The notes under the pieces: model-generated
What the model saw: only the letters and a program-made list of their open reading frames with translations
The model's database searches: none
Told to the model about the DNA's origin: nothing
Shown here: piece by piece, positions 5,755-12,838 of the stretch
How the letters are laid out: each line of letters opens with the position of its first letter
Position numbering within the stretch: position 1 is the stretch's first letter
Program-made: the position numbers and the translations under genes
DNA from: Candidatus Shapirobacteria bacterium
GTDB lineage: Bacteria; Patescibacteriota; Microgenomatia; UM-FILTER-40-11
Assembly (NCBI GenBank): GCA_020059745.1
Contig: JAGVBK010000004.1
Coordinates: 26,932 to 90,931, forward strand
Length of the DNA stretch: 64,000 bases
Reading direction: 5' to 3'

Positions 5755-5795
5755 CAAATTAGACCAATTTGTCTAATTAGACTAATTCGTTCTTC
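5755..5795. repeat. repeat cluster R1 made of AATTAGAC/GTCTAATT units (AATTAGAC-CAATTT-GTCTAATT-AGACTAATT)
   Basis: Seen directly 15 bp downstream of the xer stop. Contains a perfect 8-bp inverted pair plus a third unit. Confidence 0.6.
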
Positions 5796-6329
5796 TTTAA
5801 GAATTCTCGTCTCTTTCTAAACAAATTCTCTCTAAATCCCCCCTCCTCTACAAACTTTTTCTCTTGAGCTCTAAGTAATTGATCCAAAAGAAAGGTTTCT
5901 TTATAAATCAGGCAAATCATTAGGTTTGCAAACCCTTCGGGCTTTTCCAAACTCAAATTTGCCCAATTAGACAAATTAGCCAAATTAGTCTCTTTATCAG
6001 TTGTCTCTCGGAAAGCTCTAATCTTCAAAACCCTCTACTATCATTCTTTGACCAAAGGGAAAGTTTTCTTCTCCTTAGAAAGTCCTTAAAATCTTCGAGA
6101 AGTTCACCATAACTGGCCCTCGCCACCCCGGTAAGTTTAATGTTCCCTCAAAACTTTTTTCAAGAGAACCTTCAACAATATTCTGTTTACCTGATCTTGA
6201 GGCCTGGATCATTTGTTCAACCGTCCTTTTTTCAGAATATTCAGGGAGAAATTTCTGACAGAAGAGGATTGTTCCGTCGTCAATCGTTACCGCCAGCCTA
6301 TAAACAAGTAAGCTTTCACACCCTCCCAT
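5777..6329 (-). pseudogene. disrupted four-helix-bundle protein gene (23S rRNA-IVS protein family) in two ORF pieces
   Basis: ORF 6075-6329 (..LVYRLAVTIDDGTILFCQKFLPEYSEKRTVEQMIQASRSGKQNIVEGS) matches the N-terminal half of this family. ORF 5777-6028 (..LLDQLLRAQEKKFVEEGGFRENLFRKRRE) matches the C-terminal half. They are separated by a stop/gap, and repeat R2 is embedded in the second piece. Confidence 0.4.
5958..5990. repeat. repeat cluster R2 (CAATTAGACAAATTAGCCAAATTAGTCTC)
   Basis: Same AATTAG(A/C/T)C units as R1 and R3. Confidence 0.55.
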
Positions 6330-6334
6330 GTTTC

Positions 6335-6369
6335 CAAATTAGACAAATTTTTCCAATTAGTCAAATTAG
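6335..6369. repeat. repeat cluster R3 (AAATTAGACAAATTTTTCCAATTAGTCAAATTAGTGG) abutting the tRNA fragment 3' end
   Basis: Shares TTTGTCTAATT(T)GG (minus reading) with R1 and R2. Lies immediately 3' of tRNA fragment C. Confidence 0.55.
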
Positions 6370-6410
6370 TGGACCAGCTTGGATTCGAACCAAGGACTTC
6401 CAACTTATAA
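6370..6410 (-). pseudogene. tRNA 3' fragment C: anticodon-loop core TTATAA + GTTGG + variable + T arm (CTTGG-TTCGAAT-CCAAG) + acceptor CTGGTCC-A
   Basis: No matching 5' half with a CCAAC anticodon stem is present. The acceptor is complementary to the GGACCAG of fragment X. Confidence 0.5.
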
Positions 6411-6444
6411 TTTGCTTCGCAAAATATACTCTTTGGACCTTGTG

Positions 6445-6485
6445 TGGACGCGCCTGGAATCGGACCAGGGACCTGTTGTTTATAA
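6445..6485 (-). pseudogene. tRNA 3' fragment B: TTATAA + ACAAC + AGGTC + T arm (CCTGG-TCCGATT-CCAGG) + acceptor CGCGTCC-A
   Basis: No complementary 5' acceptor strand (GGACGCG) exists upstream. The ACAAC would pair with GTTGT of fragment X. Confidence 0.5.
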
Positions 6486-6514
6486 CGCACAAAGCGCGGT
6501 ATACCGAATTTGGA

Positions 6515-6589
6515 TGGTGGAGCCAGATGGACTCGAACCATCGACGGCTACTTTATAAGAGTAGTGCTCTACCACTGAGCTATGGCTCC
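6515..6589 (-). tRNA. tRNA-Ile (anticodon UAU), CCA encoded
   Basis: Perfect cloverleaf on the reverse complement: GGAGCCA-TA-GCTC-AGTGGTA-GAGC-A-CTACT-CTTATAA-AGTAG-CCGTC-GATGG-TTCGAGT-CCATC-TGGCTCC-A-CCA. Flanked by the inverted hexamers CGAATT / AATTCG. Confidence 0.85.
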
Positions 6590-6596
6590 AAATTCG

Positions 6597-6634
6597 TTAT
6601 AAGACAACCGCTCTAACCACTGAGTTACTGGTCC
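6597..6634 (-). pseudogene. tRNA 5' half fragment X: acceptor GGACCAG, U8A9, D arm, anticodon 5' stem GTTGT and loop CTTATAA; no contiguous 3' half
   Basis: Reverse complement of 6591-6640 reads AAGTAGGGACCAGTAACTCAGTGGTTAGAGCGGTTGTCTTATAACGAATT. After the loop the sequence runs straight into tRNA-Ile. Confidence 0.5.
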
Positions 6635-6639
6635 CTACT

Positions 6640-7197
6640 TTAGCCCAAAAAGCTTGTATACTTACTTTCCCTATTATACCAAAACCCAGCCTTGTTTTGG
6701 GTTCTGAAACGGTCAGGGAAAATCGGTTTTAGCCAAGCAGAGTGGTGCTCTTTAGGTATTTGGTGAAAAGATAAAGATAAAGAGAGCTCTTCAAAACTGT
6801 CTGCCGGCATAACGGCAACTGACGGAACAGCTCTTTTTTCCTCTTCGTCTAAAAACTGCTGGTAGGTCGGGTCAACCGCAAAGACCTTATCCTTATAAGG
6901 CAGCCTCAAAAAAACATGTTCTTTGTAAAAGCCATTAGGATAAAAAAGCCTGGTATAAACCGGAGACAAAAGAGGAAAAGCTCTTCTTAGCTTTTGCCTC
7001 ATCGCCCATACTATGGAAAAACATTGCTCTGAATCAGGGCCGACTGGTTTTTGCAGTGTTTGAGAAACAAGAAAAAAAGCTTCTGAAGCCGCCTTGTTGA
7101 TGCTTGCACCAATTCCCGATTCATCGCTTTGGTTTACTCTTTCAAGCATTAGAAAGATAATATTATAACCTGGCTCTTTTGGCAATTTCCGCTTCAA
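6640..7197 (-). CDS. hypothetical protein, last gene of the VirB4-like operon
   Basis: 185 aa. Start overlaps the upstream ATPase gene by 35 nt. No recognisable motifs. Confidence 0.5.
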   Translation of the reverse strand: MKRKLPKEPGYNIIFLMLERVNQSDESGIGASINKAASEAFFLVSQTLQKPVGPDSEQCFSIVWAMRQKLRRAFPLLSPVYTRLFYPNGFYKEHVFLRLPYKDKVFAVDPTYQQFLDEEEKRAVPSVAVMPADSFEELSLSLSFHQIPKEHHSAWLKPIFPDRFRTQNKAGFWYNRESKYTSFLG

Positions 7198-9502
7198 CCA
7201 AAGACCGTTCTTTACCGTACTTAAGCCGGGAAAGCTCTTTTATCTTTTCTGAAAGCTCAGGGCTCATTTCTTTCCAAATTGGTGGCATGTCGTCTTTCAT
7301 GCTAACTGAAAAAGAAGGTACAGGCTCGTTGTTAACAATGGTTTTTATGTAAGCATTAAAAGCCTCAATATTTAAAAGATCGCTTTCTGAAAATGTGGGC
7401 GAAAACTCATGCTGTAAATACTGGGCATCAGTTACTCCCACCCTAAAGGCAATTTTTGTTCCTACATTTCCGAAAACTGCATTTTTCACCTCTTCGTCCA
7501 TCTGGCCAATAAATTGGTTGGCCACACAAAGGCCAAGATGAAATTTCCTCGCTTCAGAAAGGATCTGGGCAAAATCAGGAGTGGCAAAGTTCTGAAACTC
7601 GTCCACATAAAGATAAAAGTCTTTTCTCTGAGCTTCAGGAATATTGGAACGGCTCATTGCAGCCATTAAAATTTTAGGAACAAGGATCAAGCCTAAAAAG
7701 CTCGAGTTTTCCTCGCCGATCTGGCCTTTGGCAAGATTAATGATAAGGATTTTCCCTTCATCCATTACCTTTCTAAAATCAAAAGCGCTTTTTGACTGGC
7801 CGATTATATTCCTTATCATTTTATTGGTGACAAAACGGCCGAATTTAGAAACAATGTAATCAAGGGTTTCTGATTTATGAAAATCAGAGGTTTGGGCAAT
7901 CTGGTCTGTCCAATACCTTCTTACCACCGGATCCTGAACCTTAGGAAGAAGTTCCTGAACATATCTTGGGTCAGTTAAACAGCGAACCACCTCAATAAAA
8001 GTGCTTCCCGGCTCAGACATTACCGTTAACATGGCGTTTCTAATTGCATGCTCAAACCTAGGACCGACAATTCCGGTCTTATAAGGGTCAAAGAGCTTAT
8101 ACATGAGGTTAATAATTGCCGTGGTAATGAAATGCTTTTGGTCCTCTGTCTCTGCCTCAAGCAGATTAAGGCCAATCGGCCGGTCAATATCAGCCGGAGA
8201 AAAGTAAATCACATCATCCGCCCTTTCCGGCGGAATAAGCTGCATTACCTGCTCAAAAGTATCATGAGGATCAATAAAACAAAAGCCCTTTCCGGCCTTA
8301 AGATCTTGGTGCATCATTTTTACCAAAAGCTGTGATTTGCCTGTGCCGGTAGCGCCAATAATATAAATATGGCGCATCCGGTCAGAGTCACCAATATGAA
8401 CCGGTTGCTCAGTACCCCTGAAAACGCTTTTGCCTAAATATATTCCCTGTTTGGGAATTTGCTGGGGAGCCGGCGCTCTTTTGGCATTAAGCCAAAAAAT
8501 ATGAGGTGTTTCCACAGTTTTATTGGGAAAGTGAAAAATAGTAGCCAGCTCTTCACTGCTTAAAACAATTTTGTTGCGGTTAAGATAAAAAAGAGGCTGG
8601 TAGCGGTAAATAAAATCAGTCATAAAAAGCTTGGGCAGTCTCACTTTATAGCTCTTAAAGCCATTTTGATCACCTGAAAGCTGTTCAAAAGCTGCTTTTA
8701 TATTTTGCAGATGGGCTTTGGCGGAAGCTAAGTCGGTAGAAGAGACAACAATTCTTATGTTTGTCTCAAAGTTGGGCTTTGAGCACTTGTTTTCGATTGC
8801 TTCCATTTGTTTGGGGTCAACTTTATAGCTTGCTTTTTCAGGATCGCTCTCGTCTTTTTTCACTTTTGAGATATATTTTCTGCCCGCAGAACGGTTGGTG
8901 TTTCCTGCCGGAGAAATAATCATCTGAATGGCTGCCCCTTCCCCTTCTTTCATTTTGGCCAAAGCCGAGGTAATTGAAGCAAGCGGATCAGTCGGCAAGT
9001 CTTTGTAGACTTTTATCGGCATATAGGAAGAAGACCTGAATTGAAGGTCGGTATAAGTTACTTTTCCTTTTTCAGAAAAAATGTTGTACTCGTTCACCTC
9101 TTTTATGTCTGCTCCGGGGTAGGTGCCGTGAATTTGTTTTTCCACCATATCCCTTAAATTTTTAGGCATGGAAACATAAAAGCGAATATCTTCAGGTAAA
9201 CCCACAATTTCAAAAGAAATGTGGTCCTGAAGTCTTAAAAAAGAAAGCTTCCCGCCTTTGTGGAGTGAAGAAAAAGAAGAAATCATCTGCTCGGCCGCGT
9301 CAATTTTTACTTCGTTGTCCCGGGGGACCGCTACTTGAAGAAGTACATACTCAAGCGATTTCTCTTCCCTTTTTCTGTTCCTGTACCAAATCACTAAAAC
9401 CTGGCCTAAAACCAAACCAAAAAGAGCTGTTAAAGTAGCTGCTAAAGCAGCGTTAATAAACAATCTTAAGTTGCCAATCAAGTCAATTAAATTAGAATTC
9501 AT
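7163..9502 (-). CDS. membrane-anchored VirB4/TraC/TrbE-like conjugative ATPase (AAA_10/DUF87, FtsK-HerA superfamily)
   Basis: 779 aa. N-terminal TM helix, Walker A IIGATGTGKS at ~residue 395, then FIDPHDTF...IGLNLL, Walker B LYVDEFQNF, then ..GTKIAFRV. This motif order resembles VirB4/TrbE more than VirD4. Family call is by recall, not by search. Confidence 0.6.
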   Translation of the reverse strand: MNSNLIDLIGNLRLFINAALAATLTALFGLVLGQVLVIWYRNRKREEKSLEYVLLQVAVPRDNEVKIDAAEQMISSFSSLHKGGKLSFLRLQDHISFEIVGLPEDIRFYVSMPKNLRDMVEKQIHGTYPGADIKEVNEYNIFSEKGKVTYTDLQFRSSSYMPIKVYKDLPTDPLASITSALAKMKEGEGAAIQMIISPAGNTNRSAGRKYISKVKKDESDPEKASYKVDPKQMEAIENKCSKPNFETNIRIVVSSTDLASAKAHLQNIKAAFEQLSGDQNGFKSYKVRLPKLFMTDFIYRYQPLFYLNRNKIVLSSEELATIFHFPNKTVETPHIFWLNAKRAPAPQQIPKQGIYLGKSVFRGTEQPVHIGDSDRMRHIYIIGATGTGKSQLLVKMMHQDLKAGKGFCFIDPHDTFEQVMQLIPPERADDVIYFSPADIDRPIGLNLLEAETEDQKHFITTAIINLMYKLFDPYKTGIVGPRFEHAIRNAMLTVMSEPGSTFIEVVRCLTDPRYVQELLPKVQDPVVRRYWTDQIAQTSDFHKSETLDYIVSKFGRFVTNKMIRNIIGQSKSAFDFRKVMDEGKILIINLAKGQIGEENSSFLGLILVPKILMAAMSRSNIPEAQRKDFYLYVDEFQNFATPDFAQILSEARKFHLGLCVANQFIGQMDEEVKNAVFGNVGTKIAFRVGVTDAQYLQHEFSPTFSESDLLNIEAFNAYIKTIVNNEPVPSFSVSMKDDMPPIWKEMSPELSEKIKELSRLKYGKERSLVEAEIAKRARL

Positions 9503-9855
9503 TAGTTTTCTTCTTTCCTAAATTCCGCTCTTGTTCCAAATATTTTTATAACTCTTAAACACCATTCCGTAAGCCAACGGATTGATTCTGTCACTTTTTG
9601 AGTTAACCCCCTGGCATACTGAGTATGGCTGATTGGTAAGACAATGGTCGGATGCTGCGGTGCCGGAGGAGAAACCAAAGGTTGGTTATTATCATCCGTA
9701 ATTGGTTGAGAAAGATAAATTTCTTTTTCTACCTTTTTTATTGCCGGCTCAAGTTCCGGGCTTAACTCTGGTTCTTCTTCAATTTTTACCGGATAAGTTT
9801 CGCTTTCTTCTTTAAAAAGCTGGTTTAAAATTTCTTTCTCGGGCAGCTCAGGCAT
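9502..9855 (-). CDS. hypothetical acidic/Pro-rich protein, first gene of the VirB4-like operon
   Basis: 117 aa. Its stop overlaps the ATPase start (ATGA-type coupling). An extended -10 (TGTATAAT) sits immediately upstream of its ATG, suggesting a near-leaderless transcript. Confidence 0.45.
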   Translation of the reverse strand: MPELPEKEILNQLFKEESETYPVKIEEEPELSPELEPAIKKVEKEIYLSQPITDDNNQPLVSPPAPQHPTIVLPISHTQYARGLTQKVTESIRWLTEWCLRVIKIFGTRAEFRKEEN

Positions 9856-9898
9856 GGATACATTATACAGCCAAAGGAGACAGGAGAAAAGTTATTGT

Positions 9899-10618
9899 TT
9901 AATACACTCCTCTTAAAAACACCTTAGAAAAGTGTTTTTTAAAAACCCCCAGGAAGTTTTCCATTTCTTCTTTGGAGAAAGGTTTAATTTTTGTAAATTC
10001 AGGATCAAGACAACTGGTAGGACGAAACTGTTGAAGATACCAGCTAAAGTTATCTTCTTTAAAATTTCCGGCTGATTTTACCCATTTGGCCGTTTTTTCA
10101 AGACCTTCACGGTCGTGCAAAGTAGGAACAAGAGTAGAACGAAGTTCAAAAGGAAGGTTGCTTTGAAAAATCAAGGCCAGACTTTCTTTAACTGGTTCAA
10201 AGCCAAAGCTAACTCCAGTATACTTTCCATAATTTTCAAAATCTCCTTTAATGTCCATGCAAAGGTAATTAACCAGAGATCCTTTTATTAGTTCTTTAAG
10301 CATCTTGGGGTTAGTACCGTTGGTATGAACCATGGTTTGGTAGCCAATTTTTTTTAATTTTCCCAAAAACTCCGGTAAATCCTTTTGCAGGGTTGGCTCG
10401 CCACCGGTAATAACTACGGCATCTGCCCACTTTTTTCGTGCTTTTAAGTCTGAAATAATTTCTTCTTCCTCTTTTAAAACAGGCTTTGCTCTTTTTTCTA
10501 CCAGTTCAGGATTGTGGCAAAAAGGGCAACGAAAATTACAGCCAGAAGTAAAAATAACCGAGCTGACCAACCCCGGCCATTCAATAAGCGAAGTCTTAAG
10601 GTAACCAGCAATCTGCAT
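9899..10618 (-). CDS. nrdG: anaerobic ribonucleoside-triphosphate reductase activating protein (radical SAM)
   Basis: CNFRCPFC radical-SAM cluster motif, GGEPTLQ. Confidence 0.85.
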   Translation of the reverse strand: MQIAGYLKTSLIEWPGLVSSVIFTSGCNFRCPFCHNPELVEKRAKPVLKEEEEIISDLKARKKWADAVVITGGEPTLQKDLPEFLGKLKKIGYQTMVHTNGTNPKMLKELIKGSLVNYLCMDIKGDFENYGKYTGVSFGFEPVKESLALIFQSNLPFELRSTLVPTLHDREGLEKTAKWVKSAGNFKEDNFSWYLQQFRPTSCLDPEFTKIKPFSKEEMENFLGVFKKHFSKVFLRGVY

Positions 10619-10765
10619 TTTAAGATTTAAAGGTCTTCCTTATGGAGAATTCCGCCTGTTTGCCGTCATTCCACTGTGATACCGGCCTTAAATAGCCGAC
10701 AATTCTTGAAAAAACTTCGCAGGGTTGCCTTTTTAAAAAAATCTGTTTGGACATTCTCACCTCCT

Positions 10766-12838
10766 TTAGTTTTCAATAATAACTTCAAGTCCTTCTTTCT
10801 CAAACTTTTCTTTCTTTCTTTCAAGCTCTTCGTCGCACTTCGGGCAGAAAAAATGCTCTCCTGAAAGATATCCGTGAACCGGGCATATACTGAAGGTGGG
10901 GGTTAAAGTATAGTAAGGCAAATGAAACTTGTCGGCAATCTTTTTAACTAAGTTTTTCAAGGAATTAATGTCCGGCATACTTTCCCCTAAAAACCCGTGG
11001 AAAACCGTGCCGCCTGTATAAAGGCACTGCAGGTCATCCTGATGCTCTAGAGCTTCGAAAATATCGGAAGTGTAGTTAACCGGCAGCTGGGTTGAGTTGC
11101 TGTAAAAAGGCTCTGCTTTGCCTTCTTTAAAAGCACTATCATTAGCAAAAATTATGTCCTTAAAGCGCTTTCTGTCTTCTCGGGCAAAGCGGTAAGAAGT
11201 TCCTTCTGCCGGCGTGGCCTCAAGATTAAAAAGCTGGTTTGTTTCTTCCTGATATTTGCCCATTTTGTCGCGCATAAAGTTAAGTATCTCAAGAGCAAAT
11301 TTTCTAGCCTCAGGCGAATAAATCGGCTTGTTAAGGAAGTTAAGACAGGCTTCATTCATACCTAAAAGGCCAATGGTGTTAAAATGGTTTTTCCAATATT
11401 CGCCAAACCGTTCCTTTATACCTTCAAGGAAATACTTTGAATAAGGATAAAGTCCTTTTTCGGTAAAATCTTCAACTACCCTTCTTTTAATAACCAAACT
11501 TTCCTTTGCCAAATCCATTAAATTTCCAAGCCTTTCTTTAAAATCAGTTTTGTTTTCAGCTAAATAGCCGATCCTGGGAAGATTAATTGTCACTACCCCG
11601 ATACTGCCGGTTAAGGGATTGGCTCCAAAAAGACCGCCGCCTTTTTTTCTAAGCTCTCTGTTGTCAAGCCTCAGACGGCAGCACATGCTCCTTGCGTCTT
11701 CAGGCTTCATGTCAGAGTTTACAAAGTTTGAAAAATAGGGAATTCCGTATTTTCTTGTCGCCTCCCAGAGGTTTTCAAGATAAGGGTTTTCCCAATCGAA
11801 ATCCTTGGTAATATTTATGGTGGGAATCGGAAAAGAAAAAACTCTGCCTTGGGCATCGCCTTCAAGGTAAACTTCTCCTAAAGCTTTATTAAAAATATTT
11901 ATTTCCTCTTGAAACTCGCCGTATGTTTTGTTCTGCGGTTCCCCGCCGATTATAACCGGCTCTTTTTTCATCATGTCAGGAACTACCAAGTCAAGGGTAA
12001 TGTTTGAAAAGGGAGTCTGAAAACCAACCCGAGTGGGCACATTCATATTAAACATAAACTCCTGCAAAGCTTGTTTAACTTCTTTATATGAAAGCTTGTC
12101 ATAATAGATAAAAGGCGCAAGCAGGGTATCAAAACTGGAAACAGCCTGAGCTCCGGCTGTTTCTCCCTGAAGAGTGTAAATGAGGTTTGTCAACTGTCCT
12201 AAGGCTGTTCTTAGATGCTTGGGGGGCTTTGAATAAATTTTTCCCGGCACCCCGCCAAAACCTTTAACTAAAAACTCTCTTAAATCCCAACCACAGCAGT
12301 AAGCCGCCAAAATCGCCAAATCATGAATATGAAGGTCTCCGCCGACATGAGCTTCGCCAATTTCTCGAGGATATATTTGGTTTAACCAGAAATTTGAAGT
12401 AATTAAGCTGGAAACATGATTGTTAAGGCCTTGGAGAGAATAGGTCATGTTACTGTTTTCTTTTACCCGCCAGTCAAGCTTCTTAATATAGTTGTTAACC
12501 ATCTCGTCACTATCAACCAAGCTGTTTATGTCTCTTATTTTTCGGTGAAGCTCGCGGTAAAGAATGTAGGCCTTGGCTACCGCCACTTGCCGGTTTTTAA
12601 TGAGCACCTCTTCAACAATGTCCTGAATTTCCTCAACGCCGGGAACAGTATGGCCGTCAAAACGCTTTTCCAAAAGCTGAACAACCTGGTCTGTCATTGT
12701 TCCTGCTTTCTCTTTATTAGCCTCTCCGACTGCCCTCATTGCCTTTAAAACGGCAGCTAAAATCTTTTTTTCATTAAAAGAAACAATGCGGCCATCTCTT
12801 TTTTTTATTCTTTTAACGGTAAGTTCGTTTTCTTTCAT
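10766..12838 (-). CDS. nrdD: anaerobic ribonucleoside-triphosphate reductase (class III)
   Basis: 690 aa. C-terminal zinc ribbon CPVHGYLSGEHFFCPKCD with the glycyl-radical region upstream. CCRLRLD motif. Confidence 0.85.
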   Translation of the reverse strand: MKENELTVKRIKKRDGRIVSFNEKKILAAVLKAMRAVGEANKEKAGTMTDQVVQLLEKRFDGHTVPGVEEIQDIVEEVLIKNRQVAVAKAYILYRELHRKIRDINSLVDSDEMVNNYIKKLDWRVKENSNMTYSLQGLNNHVSSLITSNFWLNQIYPREIGEAHVGGDLHIHDLAILAAYCCGWDLREFLVKGFGGVPGKIYSKPPKHLRTALGQLTNLIYTLQGETAGAQAVSSFDTLLAPFIYYDKLSYKEVKQALQEFMFNMNVPTRVGFQTPFSNITLDLVVPDMMKKEPVIIGGEPQNKTYGEFQEEINIFNKALGEVYLEGDAQGRVFSFPIPTINITKDFDWENPYLENLWEATRKYGIPYFSNFVNSDMKPEDARSMCCRLRLDNRELRKKGGGLFGANPLTGSIGVVTINLPRIGYLAENKTDFKERLGNLMDLAKESLVIKRRVVEDFTEKGLYPYSKYFLEGIKERFGEYWKNHFNTIGLLGMNEACLNFLNKPIYSPEARKFALEILNFMRDKMGKYQEETNQLFNLEATPAEGTSYRFAREDRKRFKDIIFANDSAFKEGKAEPFYSNSTQLPVNYTSDIFEALEHQDDLQCLYTGGTVFHGFLGESMPDINSLKNLVKKIADKFHLPYYTLTPTFSICPVHGYLSGEHFFCPKCDEELERKKEKFEKEGLEVIIEN

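Follow-up and report, generated by a model that had tools for sequence, protein, structure and literature searches.

The stretch of 64,000 nucleotides analysed here (the window) is part of a Microgenomatia (CPR) chromosome and carries a gene for a membrane-anchored P-loop ATPase (gene 2), placed between a small ORF upstream (gene 1) and a third ORF downstream (gene 3). The question it raises is what kind of motor this ATPase is and what it may move—the original prediction had taken it for a VirB4/TrbE-like protein, either left over from a conjugation module or serving a minimal export or DNA-uptake system. The ATPase is 100% identical to a protein named "DUF87 domain-containing protein [Ca. 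Microgenomates]", its relatives bear the UniRef name "DUF8128 domain-containing protein", and an ortholog is already catalogued as an orphan Patescibacterial T4CP, the "T4CP (VirD4-like) homologues" of that study belonging to the same family (Quinonero-Coronel et al. 2025, PMC12102498). The study only counts the orphan T4CPs and calls them possibly exapted; no prior description of the VirB4-like DUF8128 fold, the small partner, the leaderless promoter or the neighbourhoods was found in the literature searched.

Table 1 Features of the ATPase locus, with positions numbered from the first nucleotide of the window
Feature	Position	Strand	Basis
Third ORF (gene 3), 169 aa from ATG 7149	6640..7149	-	public gene calls
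P-loop ATPase (gene 2), 779 aa, membrane-anchored, DUF8128 + T4CP-like NTPase domain	7163..9502	-	ORF call, homologs
RecA-like NTPase domain, residues ~354-735	7298..8443	-	
Walker B (LYVDEF)	7595-7612	-	
All-alpha insertion in NTPase domain, residues 453-567	7802-8146	-	
Walker A	8333-8356	-	
DUF8128 domain, residues 45-344, alpha/beta, VirB4 N-terminal-domain fold	8471..9370	-	
N-terminal TM helix, ~residues 14-40, then RNRKREEK	9383..9463	-	hydropathy scan; long N-terminal helix in model
Small partner ORF (gene 1), 117 aa	9502..9855	-	ORF call
Extended -10 TGTATAAT	9862..9869	-	read from sequence; 6 nt before ATG 9855

The Pro-rich, acidic ORF of 117 residues and the ATPase ORF of 779 residues are both present on the minus strand as predicted (Table 1), and the stop codon of the former overlaps the start codon of the latter in TAATG, base 9502 being common to both, an arrangement by which gene 1 is predicted to be translationally coupled to the ATPase gene. 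The same kind of overlap, claimed also for genes 2 and 3, is uncertain, since the start of gene 3 differs between sources: the public gene calls use ATG 7149, leaving a gap of 13 nt and no overlap, in the alignment with its two relatives their ATG falls on TTG 7185, and the 185 residues originally given are reached only from TTG 7197. The spacing of the two genes is nevertheless compatible with co-transcription. Gene 3 itself is a near-ORFan, represented by only three proteins among 5.8 billion; it shows a weak match (26–27%) to a 143-residue ORF of one related locus (L006), is missing from the loci L001, L003, L007, L013 and others, and gave no family match even at E ≤ 10. The residues Cys43, His78 and Asp93, invariant in it and its relatives, might suggest a thiol-hydrolase-like triad. 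It is a lineage-restricted add-on outside the conserved module and may be a recent lineage-specific passenger.

Gene 1, by contrast to gene 3, is conserved together with the ATPase gene, being found directly upstream of it in 81 of 83 loci, 54 of which have the motif W-x-x-E-W. Absence of the flanking ORFs from homologous loci, named in the original prediction as grounds for giving it up, is thus seen for gene 3 but not for gene 1, and "triad" is a misleading term because conservation as a unit is limited to genes 1 and 2. Both flanking proteins lack a recognisable family, as had been stated: database searches were empty for both, those with the small partner covering Pfam, NCBIfam, PHROG and PADLOC, and none of its 59 homologs is annotated. 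The N-terminal part of the small partner, with 16 Asp or Glu and 13 Pro among the first 75 residues, is probably disordered, and its C-terminus is a conserved amphipathic, Trp-rich helix (SIRWLTEWCLRVIKIFG) with a hydrophobic moment of ~0.6, the protein having no TM segment. In a set of 80 more distantly related loci, a small acidic ORF at position -1 is once more the most frequent neighbour of the ATPase gene. It should be noted that an adaptor role common to these partners would follow from position only, since those of different CPR clades share no detectable homology (hhalign probability 0.2%).

An extended -10 element directly before the first ATG is likewise present, on the minus strand at 9869..9862, and no -35 element is recognisable upstream of it. 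With the element only 6 nt from the ATG and no recognisable -35, a leaderless transcript is predicted. This reading is backed by conservation: the arrangement TGnTAnnnT-N(4-9)-ATG, i.e. an extended -10 lying 4–9 nt before an in-frame ATG of the orthologous small ORF, occurs in 45 of 75 species-level loci as compared with 6.6% of control ORFs, a frequency above chance. The mRNA of the gene pair is therefore probably leaderless and transcribed from a conserved promoter, as judged from sequence comparison.

Concerning the ATPase, all the motifs listed originally were located, i.e. Walker A (GATGTGKS, residues 383–390 rather than ~395), FIDPHDTF (409–416), GLNLL (444–448), VDEFQNF (633–639) and GTKIAFRV (681–688), and the single TM segment corresponds to one hydrophobic N-terminal helix. 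By the positive-inside rule, most of the protein is predicted to lie in the cytoplasm, because the helix is followed by the basic stretch RNRKREEK. The protein consists of this one helix, a VirB4-NTD-like DUF8128 domain and a RecA-like NTPase domain in which the Walker motifs are intact and an all-alpha segment is inserted; in a fold search with the AF2 model (pLDDT 81), the N-terminal domain matched the VirB4 NTD and not a HAS barrel. The Walker motifs and the surrounding motifs are invariant in 54 homologs, and the ATPase is 63–86% identical among 80 GTDB species of Microgenomatia, being present at all 80 loci sampled. The family is large, with more than 6300 homologs combining DUF8128 (PF26449) with T4CP domains and 5901 representative clusters matching the ATPase at E ≤ 1e-30.

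The surroundings of the locus are formed by housekeeping genes—Xer, DivIC, RNR, PBPs and glycolysis genes—and the order RNR, partner, ATPase, Xer, DivIC recurs across species-level representatives. RNR lies upstream in 52 of 59 Microgenomatia loci, although its class varies (9 class III, 42 class I/II-type), and a convergent Xer gene is found within 7 kb downstream in 33 of 52, often with DivIC. The recombinase, 45–86% identical between loci, is conserved, always convergent and adjacent to DivIC, and is therefore a housekeeping Xer. The interval between the ATPase and Xer genes is variable and contains tRNA-Ile as well as tRNA-like fragments. In some loci Cmk, ThyX and Maf are close by, and elsewhere among the CPR clades Ndk (at position +1, 12 loci), Adk, a PyrH-like kinase, DnaX and a beta-CASP RNase are among the neighbours.

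That no other T4SS components occur in the window was borne out, no T4SS-related Pfam family being found among its 47 other ORFs. VirB3, VirB6 and VirB8 were absent from both the window and the gene lists of related loci, and neither a relaxase nor Replic_Relax was found in the window or the CPR loci examined. The original proposal, in which the conjugation module of an integrative element decays at a tRNA/recombinase hotspot, could account for the variable interval with its tRNA-Ile and tRNA-like fragments and for the lineage-specific gene 3, the more so as relatives of the ATPase do reside in conjugative and integrative elements. The recombinase being the housekeeping Xer next to DivIC, this proposal is refuted: the ATPase is intact, with invariant catalytic residues and 63–86% identity across the class, the gene order is recurrent in housekeeping surroundings, the GC content (0.40–0.41) is unremarkable, and neither patchy distribution nor element-type integrase nor transfer genes were seen in the loci sampled. 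It is the least credible of all the explanations considered here. Genes 1 and 2 form a core module of Patescibacteria, here of the class Microgenomatia, that is passed on vertically and is not the debris of a mobile element.

The assignment of the ATPase as VirB4/TrbE-like did not survive the profile searches. TIGR00929 was matched with E 0.0064 and 14.8 bits against a cut-off of 643.1, and AAA_10, CagE_TrbE_VirB and TraC_F_IV were not matched at all; the Pfam matches obtained, all modest in score, were TrwB_AAD_bind (26.2 bits, cut-off 20.5) and TraG-D_C (22.1, cut-off 22.0), with TraD and CedD among NCBIfam models and PF02534 precomputed for some homologs. A profile of the ATPase run against the PDB sequences retrieved T4CPs only (DotL and TrwB) and no VirB4. 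The ortholog KKT75802.1 from Microgenomates GW2011_GWA2_44_7 (locus L032) is listed in Table S3 as T4CP, t4cp1, with 72.7% profile coverage and "VirB4 proximity: No", the same genome encoding a distinct VirB4 (KKT72543.1), with virB4/trsD ~950 genes away (Quinonero-Coronel et al. 2025, PMC12102498). The plasmid relatives point in the same direction. On an Embleya plasmid, in the order PrgI, VirB4-like gene, DUF8128-type ATPase and Replic_Relax, the family profile aligned with the ATPase in the coupling position at an hhalign probability of 100% (columns 46–747), as against 29% with the adjoining VirB4-like protein. The pair of ATPase and Replic_Relax is also found in a Shouchella plasmid, with a separate VirB4-type ATPase nearby, in the Bacillus phage SP8 and in an integrase-bearing element (L094), the architecture thus being shared by plasmids, integrative elements and Bacillus phages of monoderms beside a Replic_Relax protein; 285 of the 349 plasmid records with a match are typed non-mobilizable. 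By sequence profile and plasmid context, the ATPase is of the coupling type (VirD4/TrwB-like, "t4cp1") and not a VirB4.

That the ATPase is a true VirB4-type assembly motor, serving a minimal secretion or uptake apparatus particular to the lineage, is accordingly improbable, despite a two-domain layout—an N-terminal domain before a RecA-like C-terminal one—that is indeed of the VirB4 type, best full-length Foldseek matches to TrwK/VirB4 (E 1.5e-15) and an N-terminal TM helix that could mimic a fused VirB3. Besides the failing profiles and that helix of its own, which sets it apart from VirB4/TrwK, no VirB3, VirB6 or VirB8 gene adjoins it, and genuine VirB4/TrwK proteins, only remotely related to the family, co-occur with it in the same plasmids and genomes. 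The ATPase resembles TrwB of R388, VirD4, DotL and Cag-beta in having an N-terminal anchor, a RecA-like NTPase domain and an all-alpha insertion (residues 453–567), and it shares with canonical T4CPs the two Pfam matches and, in its mobile-element relatives, an adjoining relaxase-like gene. It differs from them in having a single TM helix where two are usual, a domain of ~300 residues resembling the VirB4 NTD between anchor and NTPase, no adjoining relaxase or T4SS genes in the window or the CPR loci (such a link being seen only in plasmid, phage and integrative-element relatives) and an identity of only 13–17%. A coupling-type ATPase with a VirB4-like front domain is an unexpected combination, and since canonical T4CPs lack that domain, the mechanism may differ from that of TrwB/VirD4.

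Among chromosomal counterparts, CedD/TedD of Sulfolobales and Thermoproteales are likewise membrane-bound VirD4-like ATPases, encoded away from the remaining genes of a domesticated T4SS-like apparatus and needed for DNA import; the literature covered here mentions neither a VirB4-like N-domain nor a coupled small partner for them. The ATPase is not an ortholog of CedD, since the match to NF053655 (8.9e-10, 37.8 bits against a cut-off of 600) is limited to the Walker A region and far below the cut-off. Unlike the HerA/DUF87 helicase-translocases, it is membrane-anchored and has no HAS-barrel N-domain and no NurA partner, a NurA-like neighbour being absent from the window and related loci; DUF87 was matched only as the generic central NTPase domain in Pfam. 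An ATPase of an anti-phage defence system of the HerA/DptH/MADS kind, suggested by the PADLOC match to mad8 (6e-19 over residues 367–689, HerA matches being weaker), seems scarcely probable, as the likeness is confined to the common NTPase fold, the neighbourhood contains no further MADS, Dnd or Sir2 genes, and defence islands do not show so universal, single-copy and highly conserved a distribution. Only marginally better placed, and still very unlikely, is an FtsK-like chromosome translocase cooperating at cell division with the neighbouring Xer and DivIC, which would suit a membrane-anchored member of the FtsK-HerA superfamily with that frequent downstream pair. Distant homologs, however, have no Xer or DivIC nearby, the match to Pfam FtsK_SpoIIIE stayed below threshold with no motor-domain profile or gamma domain found in the ATPase, and CPR are not generally FtsK-less, since ftsK is mentioned in the portion of the Saccharibacteria literature considered.

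Most likely, the ATPase serves as a domesticated motor for membrane translocation, its substrate probably being nucleic acid, and works either with a T4SS encoded elsewhere or alone. The former version, a domesticated coupling-type ATPase that works together with its small partner and a distant T4SS on a macromolecule, most plausibly nucleic acid, is judged moderately probable. The CPR copy has lost its Replic_Relax partner and turned into a housekeeping-like gene. The ATPase would form a membrane-docked hexameric ring in which ATP drives the handover of the substrate to or from the Patescibacterial T4SS, with the small partner as a membrane-associated adaptor or regulator; Sulfolobus CedD, a VirD4-like ATPase required for DNA import, is a precedent. 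The substrate, the oligomeric state and the interaction with the partner are what we infer. Against coupling to a T4SS, the gene is not near virB4, and a Levybacteria locus (L039) carries it in a genome scored "VirB4: No". T4CP homologs, 5713 in number, occur in 2918 of 3035 Patescibacterial genomes and VirB4 in 2417, and in S. epibionticum the T4CP homolog was reported non-essential, the T4SS genes essential (Quinonero-Coronel et al. 2025, PMC12102498).

The presence of the gene where VirB4 was undetected and its wider spread would rather suit a T4SS-independent nucleic-acid translocase, alone or with a channel such as ComEC, importing host DNA or RNA for nucleotide salvage, an unlikely reading that nevertheless deserves some weight. 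It agrees with RNR upstream in spite of differing RNR class, with the other neighbours named above (from Cmk to the beta-CASP RNase), with CedD as import precedent and with recent literature proposing host-RNA feeding by Patescibacteria, in which nucleotide import is unexplained. The synteny, however, possibly reflects inherited gene order: the ribosomal spc operon ends with Adk-Map, and only two or three independent neighbourhoods were sampled. Moreover, a further membrane partner would be needed because subunits with one TM helix each cannot form a channel, and no nuclease, DNA-binding or channel gene consistently adjoins the ATPase in the loci examined. A more far-reaching version is rather doubtful, namely that the DUF8128 ATPases form a third, hitherto undescribed lineage of the VirB4/VirD4 clade, possibly an evolutionary intermediate between the two T4SS ATPases in that a VirB4-type N-domain is retained on a coupling-type motor. 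This lineage would accompany Replic_Relax proteins on mobile elements and, in Patescibacteria, would have been domesticated with a small acidic partner, becoming a near-universal system that imports host nucleic acid independently of the T4SS and feeds the adjoining RNR and nucleotide-kinase salvage genes.

Should the ATPase simply prove to be the coupling protein of the T4SS, encoded far from it, the result would be a useful annotation and no surprise. The VirB4-like fold of DUF8128 bears on the relationship of the two signature T4SS ATPases, and the ATPase-Replic_Relax module is flagged on plasmids and Bacillus phages. Patescibacteria, ultra-small bacteria that are unable to make nucleotides, account for a large part of bacterial diversity, and in the only species in which this has been tested the T4SS is essential. 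A near-universal, very strongly conserved DNA-transfer-type motor whose gene is not linked to those of the T4SS, and which now has a defined partner gene, a defined promoter and a testable domain architecture, is a candidate for the acquisition of macromolecules from their hosts.

The ATPase encoded in the window is a chromosomal core gene and not debris. The protein, which is 100% identical to that of a Candidatus Microgenomates MAG, shares 63–86% identity over its full length with its counterparts in 80 loci (L006–L085), sampled from one genome per GTDB species and spanning the Gottesman-, Levy-, Woese-, Shapiro-, Ames-, Curtiss-, Beckwith- and Blackburnbacteria, the Walker A and B motifs together with many other positions being invariant in an alignment of 54 homologous sequences. 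The word-indexed search from which these 54 were taken retrieved more than 6300 homologues, all of them possessing the domain PF26449 (DUF8128) and usually also TrwB_AAD_bind, DUF87 or TraG-D_C, and 5901 of the 1.84 billion cluster representatives scanned exhaustively with HMMER matched at E ≤ 1e-30. GC stays at about 0.40 across the window, and its 47 other ORFs are ordinary chromosomal genes, such as class A PBPs, PFOR, NrdD/NrdG, LeuRS, Ku, two-component systems and enzymes of glycolysis and the pentose-phosphate pathway; as originally noted, no T4SS-related family was found among them. It should be pointed out that many contigs with the Microgenomatia-type locus (L007, L011–L016, L020, L028 and others)—including the 615-kb complete chromosome OZ246397.1—have been deposited under names such as "uncultured Gammaproteobacteria", "Pseudomonadales", "Nevskiaceae", "Bathyarchaeia" or "Clostridia", which probably reflects taxonomic mislabelling of CPR MAGs.

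Features of the ATPase locus and of the adjacent tRNA spacer
Feature	Position	Strand	Remark
Extended −10 TGTATAAT	9869..9862	minus	six bases before gene 1 ATG
Gene 1	9855..9502	minus	ORF, 117 aa
Gene 2 (ATPase)	9502..7163	minus	ORF, 779 aa
Gene 3	7197 (TTG)..6640	minus	185 aa in the mechanical ORF list; overlaps the ATPase gene
tRNA-like 5′ half	about 6590–6640	minus	repeats CTTATAA anticodon loop
tRNA Ile-UAU, intact	6515/6518–6589	minus	sole tRNA called in 6360–6640
tRNA-like 3′ halves	about 6440–6514, 6369–6418	minus	repeat CTTATAA anticodon loop
Two unannotated ORFs	5777–6028, 6075–6329		83–84 aa; between tRNA-like fragments and Xer

What had been read from the sequence was largely confirmed. 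Every ATPase motif quoted at that stage is present, the Walker A motif occupying residues 383–390, and the protein starts with a single hydrophobic helix (about residues 14–40) followed by a basic cluster. The product of gene 1 is acidic and proline-rich over its first 75 residues and ends in a tryptophan-rich, strongly amphipathic helix (hydrophobic moment about 0.6). As to the predicted chain of overlapping stop and start codons, it holds for genes 1 and 2, joined by TAATG, but an overlap of genes 2 and 3 would depend on which of its alternative starts gene 3 uses: public gene calls begin it at ATG 7149, giving 169 aa and a gap of 13 nt after the ATPase gene, and in the alignment with its two relatives their ATG falls at TTG 7185.

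The three genes also differ in their conservation. An ORF ending within about 0–120 nt of the ATPase start occurs in 81 of 83 loci, and 54 of these ORFs exhibit the C-terminal helix "...S.RWLAEWC.R.IK", the remaining lineages having recognisable variants; gene 3, on the other hand, has just two relatives in 5.8 billion proteins, plus a 26–27% match in one locus, and in other species the ATPase gene is directly followed by Xer, tRNAs or unrelated genes. Since the small ORF is kept but gene 3 is mostly absent, the conserved unit is a dyad rather than the proposed triad, and gene 3 is a recent add-on. Neither the small ORF nor gene 3 matched a family in Pfam (at E ≤ 10), NCBIfam, PHROGs or PADLOC. 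Concerning gene 3 (6640–7149), Cys43, His78 and Asp93 are invariant among its product, the related proteins P0331 and P0332 and the ORF at 9351–9779 of locus L006, and the pattern H.F......D.tYqQF recalls papain- or transglutaminase-like thiol hydrolases, a likeness that no profile match backs. Its reading as a degenerate Replic_Relax protein, which occupies the same position in mobile-element relatives, was dropped in view of the lack of any PF13814 signal and of the invariant Cys/His/Asp, which point elsewhere.

The dyad is further accompanied by a promoter element. Among the 75 species loci that could be used, 45 have TGnTAnnnT ending 4–9 nt (mostly 6–7) ahead of an ATG that is in frame with the small ORF, versus 6.6% of control ORFs with 100 codons or more from the same loci, and no −35 element was seen upstream of the extended −10 in the window. 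This bears out the promoter originally proposed and supports a conserved extended −10 that would give a leaderless or near-leaderless mRNA from a predicted transcription start.

The surroundings of the dyad are likewise those of a chromosomal locus. The recombinase—an XerC/D domain pair, 45–86% identical across species, always convergent and adjoining DivIC—is a housekeeping Xer, located downstream of the ATPase gene in 33 of the 52 loci with enough flank. Upstream of the dyad, a ribonucleotide reductase is found in 52 of 59 Microgenomatia loci, its class varying (9 NrdD, 42 class I/II-type; in the window class III NrdD/NrdG at 9899–12838), which suggests that the reductase has been replaced in place with the neighbourhood kept. 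Between nrdD (690 aa) and nrdG, at about 10620–10760 (8387–8521 in locus L005), there is a JGI-called gene of 44 aa with a Pfam NRDD match; a frameshift, or a C-terminal (glycyl-radical) segment that has become detached from NrdD, could explain it. The spacer between the ATPase gene and Xer is variable and holds tRNA-Ile(UAU) with tRNA-like fragments, which look like scars of serial integration or excision or like decay of the tRNA gene. The view of the operon as the remnant of a conjugation module at an integration hotspot is, despite this variable spacer, contradicted by the ATPase being a core gene, by the conservation of the dyad and by the housekeeping nature of Xer.

Beyond Microgenomatia, homologues with 38–42% identity on long contigs lie in housekeeping surroundings; a small acidic ORF directly precedes them, and neither Xer nor RNR was found near them. 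Unsupervised clustering of the neighbours in 80 metagenomic loci from other clades (L095–L174) gave a small acidic ORF at position −1 as the commonest neighbour, followed by MetAP, Ndk, Adk, DnaX, GtrA, a PyrH-like kinase and a beta-CASP RNase. One −1 family, covering 25 of the 80 loci, bears the C-terminal "D.FHD.LVD" and ends with "...P.iLD.fHD.LVD..Y..L"; another partner type bears "WLKMLPGINRFFLEQE" and has no detectable homology to the Microgenomatia partner. Common ancestry of the upstream partners across CPR clades was not upheld, the hhalign probability between the Microgenomatia partner and the 25-locus family being 0.2%, and the claim is therefore limited to their positional conservation.

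With regard to the identity of the ATPase, the superfamily and the VirB4-like element of the original assignment stood, but membership in VirB4 did not: the NCBIfam profile VirB4_CagE reached 14.8 bits, its cut-off being 643. The sequence profiles lean towards the coupling proteins, the Pfam scores for TrwB_AAD_bind and TraG-D_C being just above thresholds, the NCBIfam matches at the Walker A region being TraD, CedD and TrbC, and both single-sequence and profile searches of PDB sequences finding DotL, TrwB and HerA and no VirB4. Distant homologues that are 20–31% identical and span the two domains were found in 349 plasmid and 43 phage records. On an Embleya linear plasmid the order is PrgI(VirB3)–XF1762–VirB4-like–homologue–Replic_Relax–NlpC/P60, the VirB4-like protein having the families P-loop_TraG, AAA_10 and TraC_F_IV; the CPR profile of the ATPase family matched the homologue with 100% probability (columns 46–747) and the VirB4-like neighbour with 29%. 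Gene context and profile match thus identify the family as the second, coupling-position ATPase of monoderm-type transfer modules, one that carries a VirB4-like N-domain. The pairing with Replic_Relax (PF13814; loci L086, L087, L088 and L094) extends to a Shouchella plasmid, the Bacillus phage SP8 (Herelleviridae) and the integrase-bearing element L094, and 285 of the 349 plasmids with a match are typed as "non-mobilizable"; the two proteins may represent an unrecognised mobilisation module.

Other origins and roles were considered as well. The match of the ATPase (7166–9502) to phrog_5156 (function unknown; 6e-91, residues 212–776) might suggest a prophage, but all the surrounding genes are housekeeping ones, and the phage proteins matched come from Bacillus phages and show 20–23% identity. 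Similarly, the match to the PADLOC MADS component mad8 (6e-19), like DptH, has the NTPase fold alone in common with the ATPase, which argues against membership in a defence system; because of the phrog_5156 and mad8 matches, the same NTPase core is seen to be employed in both phage and defence contexts. A substitute for FtsK linked to Xer is disfavoured by the confinement of that linkage to Microgenomatia and by a much weaker structural match to FtsK.

The ATPase is a membrane-anchored P-loop NTPase, intact and under strong constraint, with a VirB4-like N-domain, T4CP-type affinities and a coupled small partner. It would act as a hexameric ring at the membrane, moving or recruiting a macromolecule, most plausibly nucleic acid, given what the family does in transfer modules and given the example of CedD, a VirD4-like ATPase with an unlinked chromosomal gene that Sulfolobus is described as requiring to import DNA. 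The repeated occurrence of nucleotide-metabolism genes nearby is suggestive but falls short of proof. The preferred reading is that the ATPase docks on the Patescibacterial T4SS, for which nucleic-acid acquisition has been proposed as a role; alternatively, it would act independently of that system. The small partner possibly serves as an adaptor or regulator; CagZ, named in the title of PDB entry 8dol as regulating Cag-beta, offers no more than an analogy.

In the survey by Quinonero-Coronel et al. (2025; PMC12102498), 5,713 VirD4-like T4CP homologues were reported from 2,918 of 3,035 Patescibacteria genomes, just 148 of them near virB4, and possible exaptation was mentioned. The ATPase orthologue of locus L032, KKT75802.1, is listed there in Table S3 as "T4CP, t4cp1, 72.7% coverage, VirB4 proximity No", virB4/trsD being genes 90–91 of its genome and the orthologue gene 1037; the ATPase-bearing genome of locus L039 was scored without VirB4. 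The name "DUF8128" did not turn up in any paper when the literature was searched in full text. The ATPase is thus a member of a catalogued, uncharacterised family, to which the insight into its architecture and the finding of a conserved dyad add something modestly new.
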